DNA from: a virus | IMG/VR virus record: IMGVR_UViG_3300043640_000137 | Location: 24,525 to 88,524 of that record | Length of the DNA stretch: 64,000 nt | Direction: 5' to 3' (one strand) | Shown: positions 46,129 through 63,800 of the stretch, piece after piece | Layout: the number at the start of each line of letters is the position of its first letter | Position numbering within the stretch: position 1 is the stretch's first letter | The notes under the pieces: model-generated | What the model was told of the DNA's origin: nothing | The model's input: the letters and a program-made list of their open reading frames with translations, nothing else | Databases searched by the model: none | Translations under genes and position numbers: made by a program

Positions 46129-46196
46129 ACCGTCATCTCCCTTTTAACGAACCTTAACAGCTACATTCCGTAGCTGTCAAGCTACATTAAATGGGG

Positions 46197-48733: not shown

Positions 48734-50360
48734 TCGTCGTCTCCGTCACCGAAGGCGGCGTTGGTCGTCCCCATTTCGTGGAGCGGGACAGTGCGCGTTA
48801 CGTATCCAGGGCCTCGGTTGCCGCTCGGGCCACGCTTCACGCCTGCCGGCGGCGCTGGACGTGGCTGAGGCGCAGCGACGGGCTGTGCTGGTGCAGCGGG
48901 CGTCGTCACGGGATCGGTGGAACCTTGCTGCACGGCAGGACGGCCCTCATCCGCTGCGATGGCTGCTGTATCGGCGATCAGGTTGAGCATCTTCGCGAAG
49001 CGCGCCGGCTCAGATATCAGCGCGCCTACCATCGCCTCGTGCTCAGCCGTGGCGTTTTCAGGCATACCGGCGACCGCAGTCAGAAGCTCGACGCGGACCT
49101 CGTGCTTAACGGCATCGGCTTGCGACGCGAAGTCGCTCGTCGAACCGTCTGGGTTTTTCACCCGATAAACCTGGACAGCCTCGACCATGATCAGTTCAGC
49201 CGTGATCCTGGCACCGGGACCGCGAGTGCGAAGTCGTCGATTGGATCAGGCTGCGCGGATTGATCGACGGTGCTCAGCACAGCGATCCCGTGATCGATGT
49301 AGGCGCAGTCGAGGCCCGTCGAGCCGTCGCCGAAGGTCTTCAGCGGATCGAGGCCGAATGGTGCGACGATGGCGGGCCACAGCGCCCGCGTGGCTTCGCG
49401 AAGCAGTGCCTGCCGAGCCGCGACAAGCTGCTGGTGCTTCATGTCGAGCAGTTCCATGTCTTCCTTGAACTCATGCACGAGACCGTGGAACGCCTTGGCG
49501 GCGTCGAGCGCCATGCCAGTCAAAAGAAACGTCTTTGGATTACCCACGATCGTTCTCCCTCTTCTCAGTCTGCAAGACGCTATCGACGATCTGCTCGGCC
49601 TGCTCCCGCGACATCTCAGGGTGCGCAAGCATGATCTCACCCACCGCCCACGACCGACGTGTCTCGTCCGTGTTGCCGCCCTTGGAGATCGCGTTGAGCC
49701 GGCGCTGGGCCATCCCGAGTTGCGAGAAGGTGAGTCGCGTCTGCGTCATTTGTCGGACCTCGGGATCGGTGGGATGTCGAGCAGTGATGCAGCAATCGTC
49801 TTCCGGCTGGACCGGCGCTTCGGAAGGGAAGGGCTGCCGTGGTTATCGTCGCCGCGGTAATCGAGTGCGCGCTCGCGTTGCTCGGGCGTTAGCGTCGCCA
49901 GGAAACCAGTCTTCTCGGCGAGCACCTGCGGCTTGCGCTTCTCTCGCTCGATGGCGAGGTTGATGATCTCAGCGCTCCGCGTGCCGGCGATCATCTGCTA
50001 CCCCTTGACGGCCATGCCGCCGATTGGCTCGCGGCGTGCGGGCTGCGACGGCTGTTGCGGGGAAAGCTCTTCGTCTGGGACCAGCATGTCCATGACGACC
50101 AGGACGTGTGGCGTGCCGACGCCGGCACCGCCCATGACAACGAACGGCTCGCATGTGTGCAGACGCCAGTTCGCCTTGCCGTGCTCTTTCAGCAGGGCTT
50201 GAAGCTCTTCTGGCGATGTGAGGAAGGTGAGATAGTCGTAAGCCATACCAGGGAACTTATAGAGCCATTCCCCGGCTGTCAAGCTACTTTATATAGCTGT
50301 CGAGGGTCTTCCCAATAAGGTTGAGCCCCGCACGGGTATCAGCCGCACGAGGCTCGAATT

Positions 50361-50508
50361 AGAAGGCACCCTGCTTCTTGCTATCATAAAAGCTATTGCC
50401 CTCTCTGAAACTGCGCATTGTCACTTATGCTATCAAAACAGATTTTGCGCAGCTTCAGAGAAGGCGGGAGCGCAGAGACACTTGCTATCAGGCGTGCAGT
50501 TGCTCCCG
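50361..50508 (-). ncRNA. TIGR-like stem-loop guide array, three tandem units
   Basis: On the - strand each unit reads stem-GCAA-N9-TGATAGCA(A/T)-N9-(T/C)G-stem; units at 50465-50508, 50403-50460 and 50361-50404. Confidence 0.85.
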
Positions 50509-50523
50509 GTTCTCCTACGCCTT

Positions 50524-51132
50524 TCAGCGTATATCTTTCGCCTGCTTGATGATCTTCTCGACCGCCTTTGCGGTGAACTCCTGCGAGACGCGGCTCTCGG
50601 AGTCCGGCAGGCCCGCGCACAGTTGCTCGGCGATAAAGCTGTGCTCGCGGCCTCGACGGCCCCACGCCTTCAGCTTCTCTTGCGTCATGTCGCCGATGTA
50701 GCAGTCGAAGTCCGCGATCTTGTAATCGACGAACCATGCGAGCGCCGTCGTAGCGCCCTGCGTGTGCGCCACTGCTGCCGCTGCCTTAGCACCGCGCGTA
50801 GCTGCTGCCGTCGATTGGCCGCGGGCCTTGCCACGACGAGGGCCTGACTGCCGGGGTGTCTGCGCCGGGTTCAACTCCGTCTCGCGGGCGTCCATCTTCC
50901 TACCGGCCATGCGGGTGATCACGCCCAGGAAGTCGTCGTCGATCTTCAGCGCTTGCGGGCACTGGTCGATGATGGCGACCGCAAGGTTTGCTGGCGACCG
51001 GCTGTTTTCAAGTTCCTGATCGACGAGGTTACGGAGCATCGACTCCGCGTTCTCACGCGCTTTCTGCGCCGTCGATTTCTCCGCACGATGGGCGCGCTCG
51101 ACAGCGCCCGCATTCTCTATACTGGTCTGCAT
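50524..51132 (-). CDS. Hypothetical protein embedded in the TIGR-like locus
   Basis: 202 aa; RBS GAGAGG; guide-like units on both sides. Confidence 0.7.
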   Translation of the reverse strand: MQTSIENAGAVERAHRAEKSTAQKARENAESMLRNLVDQELENSRSPANLAVAIIDQCPQALKIDDDFLGVITRMAGRKMDARETELNPAQTPRQSGPRRGKARGQSTAAATRGAKAAAAVAHTQGATTALAWFVDYKIADFDCYIGDMTQEKLKAWGRRGREHSFIAEQLCAGLPDSESRVSQEFTAKAVEKIIKQAKDIR

Positions 51133-51162
51133 AACTTAGCCTCTCGTTGCTTTACACACTGG

Positions 51163-51879
51163 TTAAAAAAAAAAAGTGGAAGGCGCGGAATCTGTTGCTA
51201 TCAGCGTAATCTTGAAGTAGAGCACAGCGAGCTTGTTGCCCGGTCGCATCGCGGCGCCCTCACCATCGTCAGCCCGCGCGTAGCTGTTCTTCGGTGCGAG
51301 GCCGATGTAGCGGCGCAGTCCTTGCGGCGTGGTCTTCTCGACCGTGCCGTCTTCGAGTTCGAACTGCCGCGGATCACCGAGCAACCCGAGGATACATCCG
51401 TACCCGTAGAGGCTGACGCCCTTGGTAGCGTCGATCCAGCCGTCGCCCGCCCATCCAGCGCAATCGCCACCGGGGAGCTTTGCGACGATCTTCTCCATGG
51501 CGCGACGCGACTTCTTCTCGGCCGCGATCAGTCCGTCGATCGCCGGCTGTGACGCGCGCATCATCTCCGCCGTAGCTTCGTCCATCTCTTCGCCGCCGGG
51601 GAGTCCCATCGGCTCACCTTTTTCGTATCGAGCGAGCGATTCCTCGACCTGTTTGAGCTTCGTCTTGCGCTCGTCGTCCGGCAGGAACGCGTTGTAGCCG
51701 ATCTGGAACGCAACGAAGGATTCGTTCTGATTGATGAGGCGCATCCGCGCAACTTCCGCGCGCTTGTTAAGCCGATACCAGCGCTGAAGGTCTTCGAGTT
51801 GCGCCGTGAACGGCAGCCCCTCGATCGCCGCGGGCTCGGGCTTCACAACTTCCAACTTCGGCTTGCGCTTGGTGGGCAC
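51163..51879 (-). CDS. Nop-domain / IS110-like RNA-binding protein (TasA-like), probably C-terminally truncated
   Basis: GTG start with RBS GGAGAG; coiled coil, then 'KGVSLYGYGCILGLLGDPRQF..GLRRYIGLAP' (IS110 Transposase_20/Nop signature). No DEDD RuvC or HNH domain is visible. Confidence 0.75.
   Translation of the reverse strand: MPTKRKPKLEVVKPEPAAIEGLPFTAQLEDLQRWYRLNKRAEVARMRLINQNESFVAFQIGYNAFLPDDERKTKLKQVEESLARYEKGEPMGLPGGEEMDEATAEMMRASQPAIDGLIAAEKKSRRAMEKIVAKLPGGDCAGWAGDGWIDATKGVSLYGYGCILGLLGDPRQFELEDGTVEKTTPQGLRRYIGLAPKNSYARADDGEGAAMRPGNKLAVLYFKITLIATDSAPSTFFF
51176..51215 (-). ncRNA. Partial TIGR-like unit overlapping the 3' end of the Tas-like gene
   Basis: AGATTACGC-TGATAGCAA-CAGATTCCG-CG-CCTTCCAC; the left stem is missing. 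Confidence 0.65.
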
Positions 51880-51904
51880 TTGGCTCTCCGTTTCAAAAAA
51901 GATC

Positions 51905-51946
51905 GAACGCAGTCTACAAATTGCTATCACATGACATATTGCGTTC
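51905..51946 (-). ncRNA. TIGR-like unit in the 5' leader of the Tas-like gene
   Basis: GAAC-GCAA-TATGTCATG-TGATAGCAA-TTTGTAGAC-TG-CGTTC. Confidence 0.85.
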
Positions 51947-51955
51947 TTGAAAGAG

Positions 51956-52000
51956 AGCTTATGAAATATTTCCGTCCCTGTCAAGCTACTTTATGTAGCT
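51956..52000 (-). promoter_or_regulatory. Sigma70-like promoter with operator, driving the TIGR-like locus
   Basis: TTGACA-N17-TAAGCT with AGCTAC-N5-GTAGCT abutting the -35 box. Confidence 0.75.
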
Positions 52001-53608
52001 AAAATCCTATTCTCGAATGTGCCATCCGCAGCGCGCGATACTGGTCTTCGCGCCACGTCCAGTGTGCAATCGAGACGACGGCCTCGATCTCGAGTCCTCG
52101 TAGCGTCTGTTCATCGTACGCGAACACGGCGCGCGGAGCTTTGTCAGCGTGGTCCCGACACCAATCGTCAAACTGCCGACGCGTGCCGGCGATGACCGCG
52201 ATCTTCGCCGTGCTCATCCGAGCTTGATCCTATCAGCTATGCGGTTGAGCCCGAAACGGTATAGGCGACGGCGCGCCCTGAACATGATCTTCCACCACGC
52301 CCACCGCAGCGGAGGCAGCAGATCGGGCTCTTGTGGCTTGGGATCGGGCCGCGCGCGGCGCTGGTAGCACGACTCCATGTACCCGCATTCGCATCTTTCA
52401 GCGAAGCGACGGCACTTAGGACAGAAGGTAAGCGGGACCGCGATCTTGCTCATAGGCTGCGGAGCCTCTTAATGAAGGACTCGGCACCCGTGTTATACAT
52501 TTTCGAGAACAACCGGCGCTTCCACAGATTGCGCACGTCCATAGTCCATTCGTCATCGGGGATCGCGTGACCAAGCTCTTTCTCGGCCTGGGCGCGGATG
52601 TAGTCTAGTGGATCGCTCATGCGGAAGCGCCGGTCCAACGGTCATGGATTTGGATTAGCGAAACGATCACGCGATTGTCGTAGGTGTCACGGCATTCCAT
52701 GTCCTGTAACGACCCGTCTTGCTGATAGATGCGATACCATATGCGCCCGTCTCGACCTTTGATCTTCGAGAAGTCGTAAGGATCGCAGCGTTCGTATTCG
52801 TCAATCTTCTTCGTCATCGCCCGCCTCGTAAGCAATGCAGTCGCAGCTTTCACATGCCGTCGATCCGGGATACTTCGTGGCCGTGTTCTTCTTCACTGTG
52901 TCCGCATTCGCAAGCCATGATCTATCCCTTAGTCGAAGCTCGGGTAGCCGGCGTCGATCACGGCGTACTCGATACGGTTGGCGACCACTTCGAGCGCGTC
53001 GCCGATAGTCACGATATCCTCACTGTCTTCCTTTGATTCTCGGGCGACGTCCCTGAGTATGTCGCGCACGATCTTCAGCGCGTCGTATGCGTCCATCATG
53101 ATTCGTCTTCCACCTTCTTGACCCATGTATCGGAATCGGGCTCGTAGACGTACCCTTCCCGCTTCAGCCTTTCGATGGTGTCGCGCTCCCGATGAGCGGC
53201 GTGTGCCATCTGCCGAAGATAGTCGGAGAGCTTCGCGGTGAACGTCATGCTTCGGCTTCCGTGGCCTCTTCTAGGACGTTCGCGGGCATAAGCATCGTCA
53301 CGTCAGCGACTCCAATTCCTTGATGCGCTTCTCCAAGCGCTCCATGTACTCGGCCGCTTGGCGCAAGCCCGGCGGGTTGCCGCCGTGAACTCGAAGCGCC
53401 TGCTTGACTGTCTCGACATGCGCCGGATCGACCTTGAATGACTCCGCGGGCACGCTACCGGCCACAATCCGAAGCCCGCGCTTTTCGAGATGATGCCGGA
53501 CGTTGAGTGCCGTCACCCGGCCTTCACCGTCGCACACAGCGTCGGACAGCGCCTCGTTGATGTCGTCGTCCATGACCGCGATTGCGTCTTCGTTAGCCAT
53601 CTTAACTC

Positions 53609-53794
53609 CTACCGATAAAGTTGAATGTGCGTGGTCTGCAAACCCGCAACGCCGTGGCCGAGACGCGTGAGCCATGTCTGGAACTCCTCGATCGACAACG
53701 AGTGCGCTTCACACGCCGCCTCGATCGAGATCGCACCATCCTGAACTGACTTAACCAGTTCCGCTTTCCGCCGTGCCGTCCACCGCTTTTGCAT
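53609..53794 (-). CDS. sciP: SciP-like CtrA inhibitor (DUF1153)
   Basis: 'RWTARRKAELV..V.DG.ISIE.AC..HSLSIEEF.TW..HGVAGLQTT.IQ.YR' matches the SciP pattern along its length. Confidence 0.85.
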   Translation of the reverse strand: MQKRWTARRKAELVKSVQDGAISIEAACEAHSLSIEEFQTWLTRLGHGVAGLQTTHIQLYR

Positions 53795-54965
53795 GATGTA
53801 ACCTATGAACGAACTTTCCGTGACTGTCAAGCTACTTTATGTAGCTGTTTTATTGTTTTCCCCAAGACCTGACGATAGCCATGACCGCTTCTCTCGCCTC
53901 TGGGCATCCATCCCTGCACGCCCTCGTCATGACGTAGATCATGGCCGCGCTATCGTTCGGGAAGACGCGGCTCGCCCCATGGAACTCAGCGTCAGCATCA
54001 TCCTCACGCGGAGCGATATCACGGTTCGCGTGAAGTTCGAGGATCGGCTCTTTCTCCGTGCCGATGTTCACGACATCCCAATGCACGCGGTACGGATCGT
54101 GAGACGGCACCGGACGCCGGCTGAGATGAAGCGGTGACTGCCTGATCTTCATCGGTGCTTACTCACGTTGCTGGGATCGAAGTTCATCTGGTAGCCGGCG
54201 ACGTATGGCGTCACGCCGATCCAATCTGGATACACGGAGCCGCCACAGCCCGACACCGGCCCGACGGCGGTGATCCTGCCGACTCCATAGCCGGGCACGC
54301 GCACTTGCTCACCGAGGATGATTTCGTCAAAGGCAATCACTTCAAGCCTCCATAAAGTAGGATCGCGGTCGTCAAGCCGCCGATGAGAATTATAATCGCC
54401 GCGAGATGGTAGTACCTCATTTTTGCGCTCTCGCTCCTGGGCATTCGTTGCTCATTCGCCTGGCCGGATTCGGTGGAACCTTGCCGCACGGTGCCTCGCT
54501 GCTTGTCGAAGCCAAGTCGCAAACCGTTCTGCGTCTACCACCAGCGGCGACTTCTCAGCGAGCCACACGGCTAGCAGGTCCATGTAGCTGTTGCCCTTAC
54601 CCAGGTGCGATACTGCGTGCGCAAGGACTCGGCGCTCGATGTCGGCGAAGTCCGCGTCGATGATTACGATACGCGGCTGTTCCCGGCCGGCTCGGTGGAA
54701 GCGGCTCTGCGATTGGATGATGTCGAGGGTTATCGCGTCGAGGGCTTGCTTCTGGTGCGGAAGCAGACGGCCGGTAGGGCTCTGCCCGGAATCGGTGGAA
54801 CCTTGCTGCACGGCGAGATTGGATTCGGTGGAACCTTTCTGCACGCCGCCTAGCAAAGCGGCATAGAGATCGCGCACCAGCATCTCAGTGATCAGCGGCA
54901 GCCGCGCCCTCTCTTCCGCGTCGAGCAGGCACCACGCATTGGCCCGCCCCAATAGCTGCTTCATG

Positions 54966-55409
54966 TCAGCCATAGACGATATCCTTCAGAGCGACGCATT
55001 GCAGAAACACATCGGCCGTGGTCGCGTCTTCGTTGTCGTTGAGGAAATCGCCGAAGTGCTGGCCGTACTTCTCCGCCATGAGCTTCAGCCCGACCTTGAA
55101 ATCCGCTTGCGTGATGCGTCGGCTTTGCGGCTCGCCCTCTTCGTTGTACTCGCCGACTTCGATCTCGAAGAGGCTGCCATCGCCGAACAGCGCCGGGCAG
55201 TCATACCAGTTGTCTGACTCGGAGTCAGCCTCCGCCGCTGCAACAGCCTCCCGCCCCGATAAAACTTCGGAGAAGTGGTTGCCGGGCTCCCATCGAAGCA
55301 ACAGCACGCTTCTGCACCAGTAGTTGCTTCCGCCTTCGATTGCCGTGACCATAAGGTCTGCAATGCGTCGCGGCGCGATCTCGATCTCAATTTTCATTTG
55401 CTGCTCCAA
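54966..55409 (-). CDS. Conserved acidic phage early protein
   Basis: 'TAIEGGSNYW' and C-terminal 'DATTADVFLQ..DIVYG'. Confidence 0.6.
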   Translation of the reverse strand: MEQQMKIEIEIAPRRIADLMVTAIEGGSNYWCRSVLLLRWEPGNHFSEVLSGREAVAAAEADSESDNWYDCPALFGDGSLFEIEVGEYNEEGEPQSRRITQADFKVGLKLMAEKYGQHFGDFLNDNEDATTADVFLQCVALKDIVYG

Positions 55410-57950
55410 CTGTTCATCCCTTCGGGCGCGTCGATGCCATACCCGCCACGCTCCACTTTATCCTTGTCGGGAAGCTGGGCGATATACGCCTCGGCTTCGG
55501 CAATGGTGCCAAAGCGCTTTAGCACCGTGAACCCTTCGCTCTCTTCGTCAACCACGAACACGGGTTTAAGCGTCATTTGCTGCTCCCATTTATCGAGCCA
55601 ACCTTTTTGGTCCGCTTCCCTAAGCACGTACTCCACCATGTAGGCGAGGTATCCTGCGTCGTTCTCTTGCCCGAGCTTGGCGTTGATGCGCTCCATGCTC
55701 GGCTTAATGATCTCGGACACGCAGCGAGCATTAAACCGGCGGAGTGGCGTAGGGTGATCGGCCTTGCGGCATTCCTTAAAAATCGCGACCGCTTTGTCGA
55801 TCTCATCCTGGGTCAGGAAGTCGTCCAACGTCACTTGCTTGTCTGCCATACTTTCTCTCCCAATGAAACTCTCTAGCCAGCTACTATACGCCCTGGCCGG
55901 AATCGGTGGAACCTTGCTGCACGCGAGCGACAAACGCGTCCAGCCCTCTTCGCTTCTTGCGCGCGGCGGCGCTGTGCCTCGCCTGCGTGCGCTTTTTTAT
56001 CTTAGCTTCATGCGCCGCTAAGTGCGCGGCTACGGCCCTCTCCTGCTCTTGATCTTGCACTAGAAAAGCTCCGCTAACTCTTGCTTCAACTTCGCGTCGT
56101 CGTCCTGCACGGGCTCCGCCTTGCGCTTACGCTCGCGATCCTCGGCGTCGATGGCTTTGCAGAACGCGATCCAGTTCGCTTCGGCACGCTGAAAGCACAA
56201 CACGTCATCGGGATTATGCCGCGAACTCGGCGCATAGAACTCAGTGGGCTTAGCCACGGGCCGGCTCCGATTCGGTGGAACCTTGCTGCACGGCGGCGCC
56301 GTGATCATGCTCGATGCCGTAGGGCGCAAGGCACACTTGAAGGAAGCCATTCGTCTGCCGGCTGACGTTCGCGCACACCTTGCCGAGCACTGGCGCCAGC
56401 GCCTCGCGGCATGCGGCCTCAAAGCAATCGTCACACATTCCGACTTCCTGGGTCTGGCATGTGACGTGCTGCTCGCCGCAGACTTCGCAATAGGGTAGGT
56501 CCATCACACAGACTCCTTTGCAACCGTCTCCGATTCGGTGGAACCTTGCTGCACGGTGTCCTTCGGAAGCAAAGGAAGGTCGATAAAGCCGGGCCGCGCG
56601 TCAGGCGCTTTGAATAGCTCCCAATCTCCGGCCGCGAGGCGGAAGGCGCTGACGGAGCCGTGAGCGAGGTCAAGCTCTATCAGCGTGCGCCGTATCAGCC
56701 CGTAGCCCGGCATCTTGTCTGCCGATATCCCAAGGCGGACGAAGCCCTGAGACTCAAGCTGCGATGGATCGTAGCTCTTCGGGCCAGAGTAAAGCGTCGT
56801 GTGGCCTTGCTCGCGGGCGCGCTCGAACATCGCGTCCATCTTGGCGTTGCGGCGCTGGGCGCCGGTCATTGTCCGCCAGCCTGGGAACTTAGACATTGAC
56901 CGTCTCCGATTCGGTGGAACCTTGCTGCACGGCGGATACGCTCATATCGAACGCTCCTTCTGTTTGGCCAGCCAATCGAACCACGCCAACGCGCTCTGGA
57001 CGGTTCTGTAGCGACCGCCGTTGCAGTGGCAGGCTTGCGGCTCCCAACCGGCGAAGTCATAGTTGCCCTCGGTCGCTGTCCGGTAGCGCACAGATAAGCG
57101 CCTCTCCCAACAAACCATATCCTCGGGTATCCACTCTTCGCGCTCTTGCCCGTCAGAAGTGATAACCGCAAGGCTGGCGTTTAAGTACCTGACCGCCTCG
57201 AACCCCGCGCGCTGCATCGCTTCAAGATGCGAGGGCGGGAGCACCGGGACGGCCGTCGCTTTGCGTTTGCTCATGGCTCAGCCCTCGATCTTGGCAAGGA
57301 TGGTGCGCAGGATCGCGCGGTCGGGATCACTTGGATGCTCAATCTGCGGAACGCATCGCCGCACCCAGGCCGCAAGCTCGCGCAGCGTCGCCGCGTCGAG
57401 CGTGACATTGCCGCGTGGATCACGCGTGAAGATATCGTGGCCGATGCGGATGTTCCCGCTATCGCGCACGGAGTAAACCAAGTCGTGGTATCGGGCGTCC
57501 CGCTTGTCGCGCTCTTTGCGCGCCGCAGCAAGATCGTCGGTTGTGAACCGAGTGCGCGTCCATTCTGACGCCGCGATGTGCCGATGGCAGAGAACGTATT
57601 GACCGCTCATTTGTCGCTCCCATTCGCCTTCGGCTCGGGCTTCGCGGATTCGGTGGAACCTTGCTGCACGTCTTCGTCTTCATCGCTTTCGGGATGGTGG
57701 ACGAAGACCCAGGCCGAGACCCAAACGCCTTCCTCGGTGTAGCTGTAGAGCGGCGCGTCATCGATCTCTAAGTCGTCATTGACGGCGACTTGCTCGGCGT
57801 ACTCGGGATACTTGTCACCGTAGGTTGCGAGGATCGTGAGAACCTCAGCTTGCGTCAGGCCCGAGCCCAACGCTTCGCGCACCATGCTTTTCAAGCGGTC
57901 ATTGTCAGCCATTCGATCGACTCCTGATTCGGTGGAACCTTGCTGCACGC

Positions 57951-58382
57951 TCAGCGATACCAATATTGCACGCCGTCGAAATCGACTTGCTGATAGTCCA
58001 TCTTCAATTCGTCCGCCGCGCGGTCCCAATCGATGTAGGACAGCGGCCATTGCGCGTCGCGGCCGATGGCGCCGATGTCTTCGGCATGCTCTTGGGCATA
58101 GTCTTGGAAGGATGAGTCCCGGATGAGCGTGACCGGATACCAAGCGCCGTTCCATTCGTGATCGCCGCCATTGCCGCGAAGCTCATCCAGAAGCGCGGTC
58201 AGATTGGCGCGCTCTTGCGCCTCGTCAGTCAGGTCAACGCCTTCGACGCCGGACACTTCGCCTTCGCCGCCGATTGACGATTGCGCCGAAAGGTCTTCAA
58301 GCTCCGTTCCGATTTCCTCGACGCGTGCAATCACGTCGCGCACGTCGATATAGCCTTCGGAATTACTAATGCTATCAGCCAT
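57951..58382 (-). CDS. Acidic ArdA-like antirestriction (DNA mimic) protein
   Basis: Very acidic; 'FQDYAQEHAEDIG..YIDWDRAADELKMDY' resembles the ArdA C-terminal domain. Confidence 0.55.
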   Translation of the reverse strand: MADSISNSEGYIDVRDVIARVEEIGTELEDLSAQSSIGGEGEVSGVEGVDLTDEAQERANLTALLDELRGNGGDHEWNGAWYPVTLIRDSSFQDYAQEHAEDIGAIGRDAQWPLSYIDWDRAADELKMDYQQVDFDGVQYWYR

Positions 58383-59148
58383 CACACGCTCCCGGATTCG
58401 GTGGAACCTTGTTGCACGGCGTTCTCGCTCCGCGCGTCCTTCAGAACCTTTATGCTCTCTCGCAGCCATTGCCAGCCGGCCGTCATGCTGCCCTTGCACT
58501 CGGGTTCGAAGAGCACGATTGCGAGCGCGAGAAGCTCTTCCATGTCCGTCGCCGCGCCAATCAGGTTGGCGTTCGCAACCGCCTGTCCCGGCAACAGGTG
58601 CGAGCGGTCGGTGTCCGTAACCAGCACGCCGTTTGCATCTCGAATGACGGTGACTTGAACGGTCCAAGGACCGGGTGAATGTTTAACGGGCATCGTTCGA
58701 CTCCTTGCACTCGGCTTCGTTATCGGTGTCGCGCGATATGCGGTCGCGCGGTACGCCTAGCTCGTCTGCCATCTCTGCCGCCGATTGCTGCGCCCATTTT
58801 TCCAAGGTCGCCGCTGGCACGGGCCGGTCATTCACGGCGACCGATTGAGAGTCGAGCGGATGGTCGCCGGCCGTGTATTCTTTGACGGGCTGGCCGTCGC
58901 GCCCGTATGCCGTGACCGCGTAGCCGTGGCCGGTCAGGTACCATTGAACGAAGGGCTTCATTGCCAATCCCCGTATCCCGCGCAATCGGGCTGCGGCTCT
59001 TCGCTGTCTTCCGCTTCCATCGCGTCAAGCCAGCCGTGAATCCACGCGTAGCTGTTCTCCGCTTTCGAGGAAGATTCGGACGCGTACCGGCCATCGACTC
59101 CGGCCATGCACGCTTGCCAGCCCGCGACATACGCTTGCGCTTCGGTTG

Positions 59149-59850
59149 TCATGACCGCGCCCATCGTTGCTTAACCACAAGGTCACAATCGGAATAGATA
59201 TCGGTAAGCTCCGCGAGCAAGGCTGCGCATTCATCCGGCGTTGCGTTGCGCGTCTCATTAAACCAAGAGCGCGAGCATTCCGAGTGCTGGCCGATGTGCG
59301 CGTAGCACACGGCCATTCCGGGGTTGGCGCTCAGCGTAGGGAACACGGCGCTAACGTCGCCCTTGAACTTACCGGCGCACTCCACACGGAATAGAACCGG
59401 AAGCTTCTCTTTGCCTGACGCGGCCTTGCGCGGTTGAGTCGTTCTGTCGCTGACGATGGCGCCAGTCCTGCCAATCGTGACGCGCTGGTTAAAGCGATGC
59501 TTCCCTGCCGGCGTTATGAGCCGAAAGCCGCGAACGGACTCAACCCGGTATCCGGGGCGATGCTCTGTCAGCGCTTCATTCATCCGGCCGCGCGTCAACA
59601 TGCTATAGAAGCCGCCGCTGTCGAGCGTCACGTTGCCGCGTGGATCACGCGTGAAGATGTCGGTGGAGTGAAGGCGCACGCGGAGCGTTTCGTCGCTCAG
59701 CCTATATTCGATTGTGTTCCGCGCCACGATCCGCGACGTGATCACTTCGCAAGGCTTGCCGCTTGCCTGTATCTCGCTCGCGATCTCGGCGAGCATGCCC
59801 TTCTTACTCTTGCGCGCGATGGCTTGCGCGGAATACTGACCGTAACCCAT
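59149..59850 (-). CDS. Phage early protein (two-domain hypothetical)
   Basis: 'RLHSTDI..LDSGG..LTRGRMN' plus 'AVFP..CYAHIGQHS'. Confidence 0.5.
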   Translation of the reverse strand: MGYGQYSAQAIARKSKKGMLAEIASEIQASGKPCEVITSRIVARNTIEYRLSDETLRVRLHSTDIFTRDPRGNVTLDSGGFYSMLTRGRMNEALTEHRPGYRVESVRGFRLITPAGKHRFNQRVTIGRTGAIVSDRTTQPRKAASGKEKLPVLFRVECAGKFKGDVSAVFPTLSANPGMAVCYAHIGQHSECSRSWFNETRNATPDECAALLAELTDIYSDCDLVVKQRWARS

Positions 59851-60099
59851 GACATCAATCTCGCTATCGCTTTCGGGCGATGCGGGAGGCGCTGGTATCA
59901 CGCCTCCGCGCAGTCTTGCCCGGATTGAAACTCTTTCTCTCAGTGGATTGCGCGCTTGCGCTGCGGTCTACATGATCGGCTCCCGTTCTCTCTCGCTTCC
60001 TTGAAAGAGACAGTAGAGCTACTTTCCGTGGCTGTCAAAAAGAAAATGTAGCTCGGCGAATATATTCGTCGTTAATTTCTTAACCTATATCCGGCCATG

Positions 60100-60129
60100 A
60101 AAAAAGGCGCCTCGATTTCTCGGGGCGCC
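60100..60129 (-). terminator. Rho-independent terminator
   Basis: - strand GGCGCCCCGA-GAAA-TCGAGGCGCC-TTTTTT. Confidence 0.7.
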
Positions 60130-60740
60130 CTCTGCCGGAAGCATGCTTTTCTAAGGCATGCTTTTTTTTTCTATCACTTATCTAGGCATAGATCAGCCCA
60201 TCGTCGCCTCGGTCGCTGGCGTGGTCGCATCGCCCATGTTCAAGTTGTTGTCTTTCCAGTAGCGGAGCACGTTGCAACCGACCTTTCGCTGCACAGCCTT
60301 AGCGCATAGCTCTTCAAGCTCTGCATCAATCGCTTCTGTGATCTGGCCCGAGCTTGGTTCTGCCGCCGCTAGTAGCGTATAGTCGAAGCGGAAGACGGCA
60401 AAATCATCGCCCGCAACGCTTGCCTCGAACGCATAGGCTTTGTCCGCTTCCTCCGCCGTGTGCCACCAATCGAAGCCGCCGCCGCCTGCCCGTGGACCGG
60501 GATTGACGTACTCCGTCGCGACGCAATAGACCTTCTTCCCTGTCATGACGATAGACCTCTCTTTGCTGATTCGGTGGAACCGTGCTGCACGTCAAATAAA
60601 TCCCAAGCTTGATCGACGCGTTCCAAGATTCGGTGGAACCTCGCTGCACGCCGGCCCGATTCGGTGGAACCACGCTGCACGGCGCCACCGTCCGCGCTCG
60701 CGCTCGATCTCTCGCTTTTGAGATAATTCCGCTCGATCGG

Positions 60741-60817
60741 TAAGGTTAACGATCCATTAAGGTTAACGCGCATTAAGGTTAACGATCCATTAAGGTTAAC
60801 GCGCATTAAGGTTAACG
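60741..60817. promoter_or_regulatory. TAAGGTTAAC x5 array containing CtrA-type TTAA-N7-TTAA boxes
   Basis: Copies at 60741, 60758, 60774, 60791 and 60807; TTAACGATCCATTAA at 60746 and 60779. Confidence 0.65.
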
Positions 60818-63800
60818 CCCGGCCAGCTTTCATTTACCATTCCTCGCCGCGAGCGCGGCTACCGCTTCCGGCGCCGTGTCTCTGCCGCCTGCCCGTAGGA
60901 TGTCCGATATCGCCGCTAGGACTGCGCTAGGCGTCTTTCCCGCGCGCTCGCGCATCGTGCCTGCTATCCGGTCTAGGGCGCCACATGCCGCCATGCGCTC
61001 CGCTCCGCCGCGATCAAGCTCGCCTAGGAAGCCTGCCGCTAGGTGCTGGCGTATGCCGGCGCCCATATGCGGCCGTTGCTCGATTGTGTACCGTGCCTTG
61101 CCCGTGTCCGCATCATAGGCGACATCCACGGATATCGCACCGCGCCACGATGTAGCCAGCGTGCGCAACCCTGTCTTTTTGTCACCTATGCGCGAGACTG
61201 TCCCGGTTCCGCCGCGAAGCGCGCGGCCGGTAACGCTTCCCTTAAATTCTGCCATGCCTCGACTCCTTGGGGCGAATGGTCGCCCGGTATCGTTTCGTCG
61301 CCGCAAGGGAAGCTCGCCTAGCGCGTTCTGCTATGCCATAGCCAGATTGCTACGCCTCCCAGACTTCGCGCCCCTTGGCCTTCCCTTGCGATCTAGCGGT
61401 TCAAGTGACCGTGCGAGCCGAGATAGCCCGGCCTGCCGGCAATCGCCCCGTTAGCATCGTGACGCGGTGCCGGCGACGCGAGTTGCTCGCCTATGGCCTT
61501 TAGCATTGCATCCCTAAGCCGGTCAGAGAATGCCGCCATGATCGCCGCGCGCGGAGTGGTGCCGGCCGCGATGTCGCGATCCACTTCCTCAATCCGCGCT
61601 TAGGTATTGCGACAAGGCATAGTGATTGAACGGCACTCGGCGCCGTGCTGCGCTCGCTTCCTGGCGCGCATCAAAGCGCGTTGCAGCGTGAACTAGCGCG
61701 GCGTGTATCGTGCCGCCGAATAGCTTGAACGGTTCCGCTGTCATATGTCTATCCCGCGTCGCTCCGCTTCGCCGCGCGCAATCTCCGCGTATTCATCACG
61801 GCCGGCGCCGGACTCCTTTTCATAAACGCCGCGAACTTGTGAGTCCGTGCATTGCCGGCAATAAAGCCGGAACCCTTCTCTATCGCGCCGTGTCATGCGG
61901 CTGACCCCTTAGAAATAACCCGGATCGTCGGCAACGGCGCCGACATTATCGGCAATCCAGCAACTAGCCGCGCTGATAAAGTCTAACGCTTTGGCGTTGC
62001 ACGATGGACAATCGATCGTGCCATCTGTGCCCAAATGATCATCTTCGCATTCGAAGCCGTCAGGCATGCCGTGCCAGCCGAAATTTCGCGCGACACTGGG
62101 ATAGTCCCATTCCGCTTGCACTAGAATCGTGTTGCTTTCGTCGCGTGCATCGTGAGTCCCGTCTGCCCGCTCGCGCGCAATGATGTAGCAGCAAGGCGCG
62201 AAGCTTGAGTCGCGGCATAGGTGAATGAGGCTCACTTGCTCGACTCCTCTTGCTGGCAAAACTCGGCGGCAAGTTTTGTCTGTATCTCGCGCTCGCTTAG
62301 CATCCCGGACGCGCGACACGCGACACCGTGCGGCTTATCGTGCGGTTTCATCGTGCCGAAGCCCTTAGCGCCGCAATGCGGGCACTTCCAAATGGTGACG
62401 CTCATTTGTAAACCGCGATTCCGTTTGAGTAGCAGGACTCCACGCTGGCGCCTTCCCGGATATCGCCCGGCCGAAGGATATAGAGCGCGGCGCCGCGCGG
62501 GTCGCCTTGAATGTAGAAACTCAGAGTCGGATATCGCGCCATGATCGCCGCAAGGCGTTTCAGCGCCCCTGACTCTCTGTCACCTATCGACTCATACTTC
62601 GCGACATTGAGGCCATGGACGTGCCGCTCTAGGAAGGGCTTGCCCTTCTCGTCATGAATAAACGTGCCGTTCTCTTTTCGGCCGCGCGTTATGACCCATG
62701 ACGAATAGTCATTCGAGTCGCCGCACTCTAGTTCATGCCAGCGATGCAACGTCATGGACACGCGGCGAAGCGCTTGTGCATCGTCATACGCGATGCCGGC
62801 CGCTATCAGTCTGTCAACGCAATCGGAAAGGCTCATGCTTCGACTCCTACTTTGCGCGCGCGGCAGAACGAAAGCCGCATGCGACCGACTTTGAAAAACC
62901 ATATCCCGCCAACCTTGCGCGCGGACGGCGCAAGCGCCTTTAGCTTCGCGCTCATTTTCCCGACTCCTCAGTAAAGACGGACTCGGCCAGTGCCTTGGCG
63001 CCTTTAGCGCTTTCGCAAAGCTGCCCGTAAACGTCGCGGCCGAAACGCGAGATCGTACTCGCGCCGTCCCAAACGCTCGCGCCCGCATGCCATTTCGTGC
63101 CGCGCGCGGCCCTCTCGCCGAATAACCCTTTAGTGTGTTCCGGCGCCGCGAATAACGTAACATTAGCGCCCATTTCGGCGCGCCATCCTGCGCCGTCTTT
63201 AAGCCATGGGAACGTGCTACTAGCCGTATCCGACTCCTAGCTAAGAATGGTTGCCAAGTCCGCCGCGTCTTGCGCGGCTCGCTCCGCTTCGATGCTTCGC
63301 GCGGTTGCCGCGTAGTCCCTCGCCGCGCGCAAAGCGATATCGTGCGACTCAACCGTGTATCGATAGATCGCCGCGACGATTGACTCCGCACCATCGAGCA
63401 TGTTGCAAGCCAAGCCTGCCGCGACAAGCTCGCGCGAAGCGGCATGGAACGCATTACCTATCGCCGCTTGCGTTGCTTCCGGCGCCGCCGCGAGCATACG
63501 CGCCCAATGCTTATCAACATTAGTTAGGCTCATTTACATCGACTCCAAGGCTTCGATTTCCCGCCGCGCTTCCTTAGCCGCGCCGGCAGAGTCGCAGTCC
63601 CAAGAGACAACCATTTTTTCCCAAGCTATGCAAGCCGGGCGATTCATAGATCGTGACGGATGCGCCGCGCTTCGTGCCGCCTGGAATCGTGTATCGTTGA
63701 ATGTAGGCGACGTGCCGCGCCGTGCGGATAGCGCGGCTCATTCGTCAACCCGCGCAACAAGGTTAGACGCGGTAGGGCATCCCGAGCCCGCGCCGTCGCT

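Follow-up and report, generated by a model that had tools for sequence, protein, structure and literature searches.

TIGR-Tas systems were described only in 2025, and the locus studied here raises the question of what a small protein gene is doing among the guide units of such a system in a virus. The window, by which we mean the whole 64,000-nucleotide stretch of DNA analyzed, covers the right-hand 64 kb of a virus record that is complete at 88.5 kb. It contains a Tas-like gene with hairpin guide units around it and, between them, an open reading frame of 202 codons, here called ORF202. A sequence-only reading had proposed this frame as a candidate accessory or effector of the Tas-like protein, arguing that a Tas without a nuclease could obtain its effector function from a partner. 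The role of TasA in phages and the maturation of stem-loop tigRNAs are current questions, and a gene that shares the transcript of the guides is a natural candidate for a helper. The features of the locus are, in the direction in which they are read:

51956..52000, minus strand, operon promoter with an inverted repeat, a −35 and a −10-like element
51905..51946, minus strand, guide unit E in the 5′ leader of tas, with a 7-bp stem, a 10-nt spacer, the loop TGATAGCA and another 10-nt spacer
51163..51879, minus strand, TasA-like gene (protein P0002), GTG start, 238 aa as called
51179..51220, minus strand, remnant of guide unit D, with the loop TGATAGCA at 51203-51196 and a 3′ side ending GCCTTC, as in unit A
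51165..51175, minus strand, run of 11 T that ends the shortened tas frame (10 T in an independent assembly)
50524..51132, minus strand, ORF202, 202 aa, ATG start
50465..50508, minus strand, guide unit C, with a 7-bp stem and the loop TGATAGCA at 50490-50483
50398..50465, minus strand, guide unit B, with a stem of up to 20 bp, the loop at 50435-50428 and a fold-energy z-score of −6.1
50361..50404, minus strand, guide unit A, with an 8-bp stem and the loop at 50386-50379
50323..50355, minus strand, 13-bp hairpin between unit A and the promoter that follows, the folded stretch having −27.1 kcal/mol
50277..50289, minus strand, next copy of the promoter motif AAGTAGCTTGACA, heading the following gene at 49998-50282

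ORF202 as a gene and as a protein

The DNA of the locus has a GC content of about 60%, and in 300 shuffled versions of it the longest open frame stayed at or below 197 aa in 95% of cases and reached 300 aa at most, so that the length of ORF202 alone is not beyond chance. To find relatives, we performed an exhaustive phmmer search against 1.84 billion representative proteins (E ≤ 0.001, no length limit), which returned three proteins: ORF202 itself, P0004 and P0005. P0004 (204 aa) is 50% identical to ORF202 with an E value of 4e-45, residues 4-199 aligning to 5-201, and the two proteins have the MQT start and both ends in common. The match to P0005, a repeat protein of 1512 aa rich in Cys and Thr, had an E value of 2.3e-4 and was judged compositional rather than a sign of kinship. 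Among the 1.84 billion representatives there was no longer protein with an ORF202-like part, that is, no fused form.

The identity between ORF202 and P0004 is 55% over residues 1-87, 35% over residues 88-130 and 52% over residues 131-202, a pattern that points to two folded domains with a free linker between them. The GC contents at codon positions 1, 2 and 3 are 0.64, 0.49 and 0.77, resembling those of the neighboring genes and with a GC3 typical of the phage. On the strength of the homologue, the domain-wise conservation and the codon-position GC, ORF202 is a real, native phage gene whose family is very rare, two members being known, and the earlier reading of the frame as a gene is borne out. 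That it is instead a chance open frame in GC-rich DNA is extremely improbable: the longest frame is of this length in about one of twenty shuffled versions of the locus, which would fit a chance frame, but a full-length homologue with the same start and end, a codon-position pattern typical of coding sequence and a Shine–Dalgarno-like GAGAGG at 51145-51140, 7 nt ahead of the ATG, all speak against it.

The sequence-only reading had found no recognizable family for the protein, and the searches agree, as Pfam, PHROGs, NCBIfam, PADLOC and the PDB sequences gave no significant match to ORF202. Residues 136-177 matched PHROG 13027, a "transcriptional regulator," at an E value of 0.032, which is not significant, and the match is absent in P0004. 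The profile of the GcrA sigma-70 cofactor (NF050816) scored 13.8 bits where its cut-off is 280 (E 0.053), with the low-complexity linker making up most of the match, and did not match P0004. At E ≤ 1, Pfam contained no helix–turn–helix family for ORF202, and neither Pfam nor NCBIfam gave a ParB family for ORF202 or P0004. No nuclease domain or catalytic motif of the HNH, RuvC or PD-(D/E)xK type was detected in ORF202 with Pfam, PADLOC, NCBIfam or the PDB sequences.

The AlphaFold2 model of ORF202, computed from a two-sequence alignment, consists of helices throughout and has a mean pLDDT of 53, with only residues 145-200 reaching about 75-80. Together with the conservation, it suggests the following layout:

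residues 1-87, N-terminal domain, modeled as helical in the low-confidence model
residues 88-130, linker, basic and variable, net charge +7
residues 131-202, C-terminal domain, modeled as helical in the low-confidence model

Both domains are near neutral in charge, and it is the linker that is basic. Fold searches with the model stayed at noise level (best Z 7.5, best E 0.26 and best E 2.9), and the atlas search with ORF202 gave a best feature score of 0.76, residues 128-202 having no usable feature match. As the protein shows no enzyme signature and its low-confidence model is all-helical, a role as a nuclease effector is unlikely.

The shortened tas gene, its guide units and their transcript

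The sole relative found for P0002 is P0003 (306 aa; 61% identity). The profile NF052498, named "TIGR-Tas system RNA-guided endonuclease," matches P0003 at an E value of 1.9e-10 over profile positions 10-214 of 215, although at 41 bits the match is under the 100-bit cut-off, and it matches P0002 at an E value of 0.0086 over positions 30-112 only. The P0002 locus is the only match of this profile in the genome, and the profile also rings weakly in control genomes. No nuclease domain was found in P0002 or P0003, and the structure model of P0002, with a pLDDT of 38.5, is unusable. The Tas-like gene with guide units described by the sequence-only reading holds, given the stem-loop TIGR architecture, and so does the statement that its product has no nuclease. 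The lineage of P0002 appears to be a very divergent TasA lineage with two members known.

The homology between P0002 and P0003 ends at ...KLAVLYFK, residue 223 of P0002, which stops 15 residues further on. P0003 extends about 95 C-terminal residues beyond the break, and these carry the rest of the NF052498 profile; the missing C-terminus was not found elsewhere in the genome (best E 0.064). The remnant of unit D begins exactly where the homology breaks. The tas gene is therefore truncated within a guide unit, its frame continuing through the half-unit into the T11 run. Judging from this junction, a deletion probably fused tas codon 223/224 with the interior of the unit. ORF202, which starts 30 nt after the shortened tas, is intact while tas is not.

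Two other readings of this region were rejected. A frameshift fusion of tas and ORF202 via the T run fails in all three frames: whether the run has 10, 11 or 12 T, tas reaches a stop without being joined to ORF202. A run of 10 T would lengthen tas by 16 codons, so that it overlaps the first ORF202 codons. An assembly slip as the cause of the arrangement was rejected because an independent Logan assembly, made from a run that is possibly the source, is identical over 8 kb except for one T fewer in the T11 run.

The loop motif TGATAGCA is found six times in the 88.5-kb genome, against 1.46 copies expected, and five of the six copies cluster on the minus strand in the 1.55 kb surrounding tas, at 51929, 51203, 50490, 50435 and 50386. 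Four hairpins (E, C, B and A) follow one plan: a stem ending GCA, 10 nt, UGAUAGCA, 10 nt, UGC and the other stem arm. Genome-wide, four units fit such a hairpin plan of two short variable segments, symmetric box-like motifs and a conserved loop, and a search of the whole genome for the plan that was independent of the loop returned E, B and A only, whereas each of 20 shuffles yielded at most one. Pairing is maintained although the stem sequences differ, 4 of 8 pairs showing compensatory changes, and 83% of cells are paired in comparison with 22-53% when the partners are slid. The 5′ arm of unit A overlaps the outer 3′ arm of unit B, and unit E is followed by a run of six T (51900-51895). Rfam gave no match in 50000-52300, and the spacer pairs have no tandem match with fewer than 3 mismatches in 18 nt, by raw mismatch counts, in the phage's own genome.

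The remnant of unit D lacks the 5′ arm, the stem and the edge motifs. The earlier placement of ORF202 between guide units is right with one reservation: the gene is co-oriented with them and lies between D and C-B-A, but D is a half-unit without a stem. As all five TGATAGCA loops around tas are identical and the stems of E, C, B and A are intact, the guide system seems to be still under selection despite the shortened Tas, and such selection seems to leave room for a helper.

The architecture resembles that of the stem-loop TIGR-TasA systems (PlTasA, BlTasA and MbTasA) described in 10.64898/2026.09.09.750476 and PMC12045711. The likeness extends to a nuclease-free Tas, here putatively of coiled-coil and Nop type, hairpins with two variable segments of ~10 nt around a conserved loop of ~8-9 nt, symmetric motifs at the spacer borders (here GCA ... 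UG-AUA-GCA ... UGC), units on both sides of tas and touching its reading frame, and CUU at the stem bases (in C, A and D the 3′ base reads GCCUUC). Unlike those systems, the present locus has only four intact units, its Tas is distant (P0003 at 41 bits against a cut-off of 100) and C-terminally shortened, and a family-less protein gene lies between unit D and units C-B-A.

Upstream of unit E, the inverted repeat AGCTACATAAAGTAGCT (52000-51984) overlaps a −35 element TTGACA (51984-51979), which is separated by a 17-nt spacer from a −10-like TAAGCT (51961-51956). The promoter motif AAGTAGCTTGACA occurs in the window at 53837, 51991 and 50289 only, each time on the minus strand, and at all three sites a perfect 6+6 inverted repeat, AGCTAC-ATAAA-GTAGCT, abuts the TTGACA. 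The position of the repeat at the −35 is operator-like and suggests a dimeric regulator of a middle gene class. Variants of this inverted-repeat promoter family were also seen at 46185 and G000 10542 (+).

Between tas and ORF202, the sequence-only reading had noted no promoter motif, and we likewise found none: AAGTAGCTTGACA is absent there, the 14 sites of a further motif family, GCAGCAAGGTTCCACCGAATC, leave the interval between 48931 and 54467 free, and no sigma-70-like site scores ≥9/12. The hairpin at 50323..50355 is the probable end of the transcription unit, although its U tract is weak, or else an RNA-stabilizing element. With a promoter at 52000-51956, no motif between tas and ORF202 and a hairpin after unit A, unit E, tas, D, ORF202 and units C, B and A are very probably one RNA. 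Apart from tas, no protein gene but ORF202 lies in this promoter-to-hairpin unit, and ORF202 is bracketed by guide units.

Readings of the role of ORF202

The proposal of an effector partner started from the lack of a nuclease in Tas. This rationale is weak, because nuclease-free TasA alone has been reported to be an RNA-guided transcriptional repressor (10.64898/2026.09.09.750476). The same preprint describes stem-loop TIGR units scattered upstream, downstream and inside genes in flexible positions, and the sub-arrays of PlTasA are ~450 nt apart according to PMC12045711; a gene between sub-arrays therefore needs no functional link to the system. Operon membership is the only link of ORF202 to Tas, and an accessory role, for which position is the sole evidence, is a lead. 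The locus is compact (1.7 kb), and with a positional link and a damaged tas it offers a lead rather than a discovery.

The reading that we favor, tentatively and somewhat short of calling it probable, is that ORF202 is a non-enzymatic regulatory or nucleic-acid- or protein-binding passenger of the TIGR-TasA operon. The shortened tas, ORF202 and the guide units are very probably co-transcribed from the sigma-70-type promoter at ~51984, the transcript ending with the hairpin at 50355-50323. An N-terminal domain of long helices is predicted for the protein, followed by a flexible, basic linker and a small bundle of C-terminal helices, possibly helix–turn–helix-like, and the protein may serve as a small binding or regulatory protein of the early/middle program of the phage. 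It would ride in the operon as a passenger and not as a required effector, and the deletion of the tas 3′ end and of the 5′ half of unit D probably moved it to its position 30 nt behind tas. The suggestion of a regulatory or binding role comes from the composition, the low-confidence model and the PHROG match (E 0.032) in one of the two members.

The genomic surroundings provide many genes of a comparable kind. Small orphan genes predominate in this genome arm, and 18 of the 32 proteins neighboring ORF202 have no PHROG match at 1e-5. ORF202 is like the small orphan early/middle phage genes in being short, helical, family-less and placed head to tail behind a shared promoter, and unlike them in being bracketed by guide RNAs and lying on their transcript.

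Each of the two proteins of the operon has one detectable relative, P0004 for ORF202 (50%) and P0003 for the Tas-like protein (61% identity), the former on a 1274-bp and the latter on an 1881-bp Logan contig. Protein and alignment scans of IMG/VR, JGI metagenomes, GTDB genomes and INPHARED phages gave no relative of ORF202 or P0002, and the word-based searches turned up P0003 and otherwise nothing but proteins of the window itself. The same kind of source and the similar divergence of P0004 and P0003 would fit co-inheritance; on the other hand, a single related phage would produce the same parallel pattern for any two genes.

The parallel rarity is one of the observations in favor of a dedicated non-nuclease accessory, either an adaptor on Tas-bound DNA or a maturation or loading factor of the stem-loop tigRNAs. 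We consider this unlikely, even though ORF202 shares the promoter-to-hairpin unit with tas and the guides, is bracketed by the units, and has between its conserved domains a basic disordered linker (+7) that would suit contact with RNA or DNA. ORF202 could then be the missing factor in the maturation of stem-loop tigRNAs, whose processing is improved by flanking sequence (10.64898/2026.09.09.750476). There is also a precedent for an operonic partner: in PMC12045711, TasParB is a partner of TasA encoded in the same operon, with the arrays sometimes between both genes. ORF202 is similarly operonic with tas and has guide units on either side, but it has no detectable ParB domain (Pfam, E ≤ 1), and whereas TasParB accompanies dual-repeat arrays and recurs across loci, ORF202 has one known relative.

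More generally, ORF202 shows no similarity to ParB, to Tas or to any RNA-processing family, and TasA is reported to work without partners (10.64898/2026.09.09.750476; PMC12045711), the latter source describing TasA as lacking clear protein associations, ParB-like partners excepted. The predicted complex of the Tas-like protein with ORF202 scored 0.00 in two runs in which the controls were not folded, and speaks neither for nor against such a pair. A scan of IMG/VR for three TGATAGCA with 35-65-nt gaps gave 87 loci, none of which encodes a relative of ORF202, though the sampled ones are not TIGR loci. A tblastn search with four proteins gave 0 matches in the 87 loci, and NF052498 matched none of five records with the motif. 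Among 21 ORFs flanking such loci, five match Pfam Zot and one matches G2P. Judged by the records sampled, the 87 loci are tandem repeats and arrays in filamentous-phage-like records, and we rejected them as Tas loci.

Another reading takes ORF202 for a regulator of the phage's own promoters, binding the inverted repeat AGCTACATAAAGTAGCT at the −35 of its own and two other operons. Aca proteins of anti-CRISPR operons are autoregulators and offer an analogy. The perfect 6+6 repeat abutting TTGACA at 51991, 53837 and 50289 would provide the binding sites, the C-terminal helical bundle is the best-modeled part of the protein, and residues 136-177 match PHROG 13027. We nevertheless regard this as quite unlikely: that match is not significant (E 0.032) and is absent in P0004, Pfam gives no helix–turn–helix family at E ≤ 1, and the arm contains many further small orphan genes that could fill the role just as well.

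A bolder form of the helper idea would make ORF202 the founder of a new family of non-enzymatic TasA partners that mature, load or stabilize hairpin tigRNAs and, in this phage, may even let a Tas lacking its terminal RNA-binding helices keep working. We hold this to be very unlikely.

That ORF202 itself supplies in trans the C-terminal RNA-binding helices missing from the Tas-like protein is highly improbable: the Tas-like gene is ~95 residues short, ORF202 begins 30 nt later and the guide units look intact, but ORF202 shows no similarity to the C-terminus of P0003 (BLASTP against P0003, E 1.1; hhalign against the alignment of the Tas-like proteins, probability 0.3%) and no NF052498 match at E ≤ 1. 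Moreover, the other member of the ORF202 family is a protein of 204 aa in its own right, and P0003, the relative on the Tas side, has its full length.

The surrounding genome

ORF202 lies in a right arm that is transcribed leftward, from a block of small orphan genes to a replication module of primase-polymerase, helicase, topoisomerase, exonuclease and ssDNA-binding protein. The primase-polymerase is at most ~33% identical to that of any isolate phage, and a neighboring 149-aa gene has no match among isolate phages. A single IMG/VR contig encodes a related methyltransferase (39% identity) and shares none of 40 further genes tested, and no syntenic phage was found in the collections searched. 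Two sequencing runs contain the stretch, and as both are soil metagenomes, the virus is probably of soil origin. In the second of them, the locus is represented by two identical 151-nt pieces; no RNA run was among the listed runs that contain the locus.

The motif GCAGCAAGGTTCCACCGAATC probably serves the phage as a regulatory site or an early promoter. It has 14 copies (≤3 mismatches) in 48911-60678 on the minus strand, where none is expected by chance; they mostly precede small orphan genes and often run through ORF ends, reading ...VQQGSTES.... In contigs of the source-like run, position 54490 is joined to 54822, skipping 331 nt, and in one record 35 other letters lie between the two; this join may be a population variant. 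Its end at 54822 coincides with a copy of a 21-nt promoter-like motif (54822-54842), another copy of which (54467-54487) lies just before 54490.

The scan for the loop motif also drew attention to six IMG/VR records of ~7-11 kb (L056, L060, L071, L008, L076 and L062), which are filamentous-phage-like with Pfam Zot and G2P matches and contain three TGATAGCA at a spacing of exactly 44 nt with variable flanks. In L056, L060, L071 and L008 the motifs start within a few hundred nucleotides after the assembly-ATPase gene. Loci of this type were ruled out as TIGR loci by NF052498.

Two repeats were seen elsewhere in the window. At 60741-60822 a 16-17-nt unit, TAAGGTTAACG(A/C)(T/G)C(C)AT, is repeated four to five times in tandem; the copies are iteron-like and may mark an origin or a regulator-binding array. 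In the early-gene block, a 43-nt direct repeat with 93% identity is found at 57395-57437 and 59620-59662, 2.2 kb apart.
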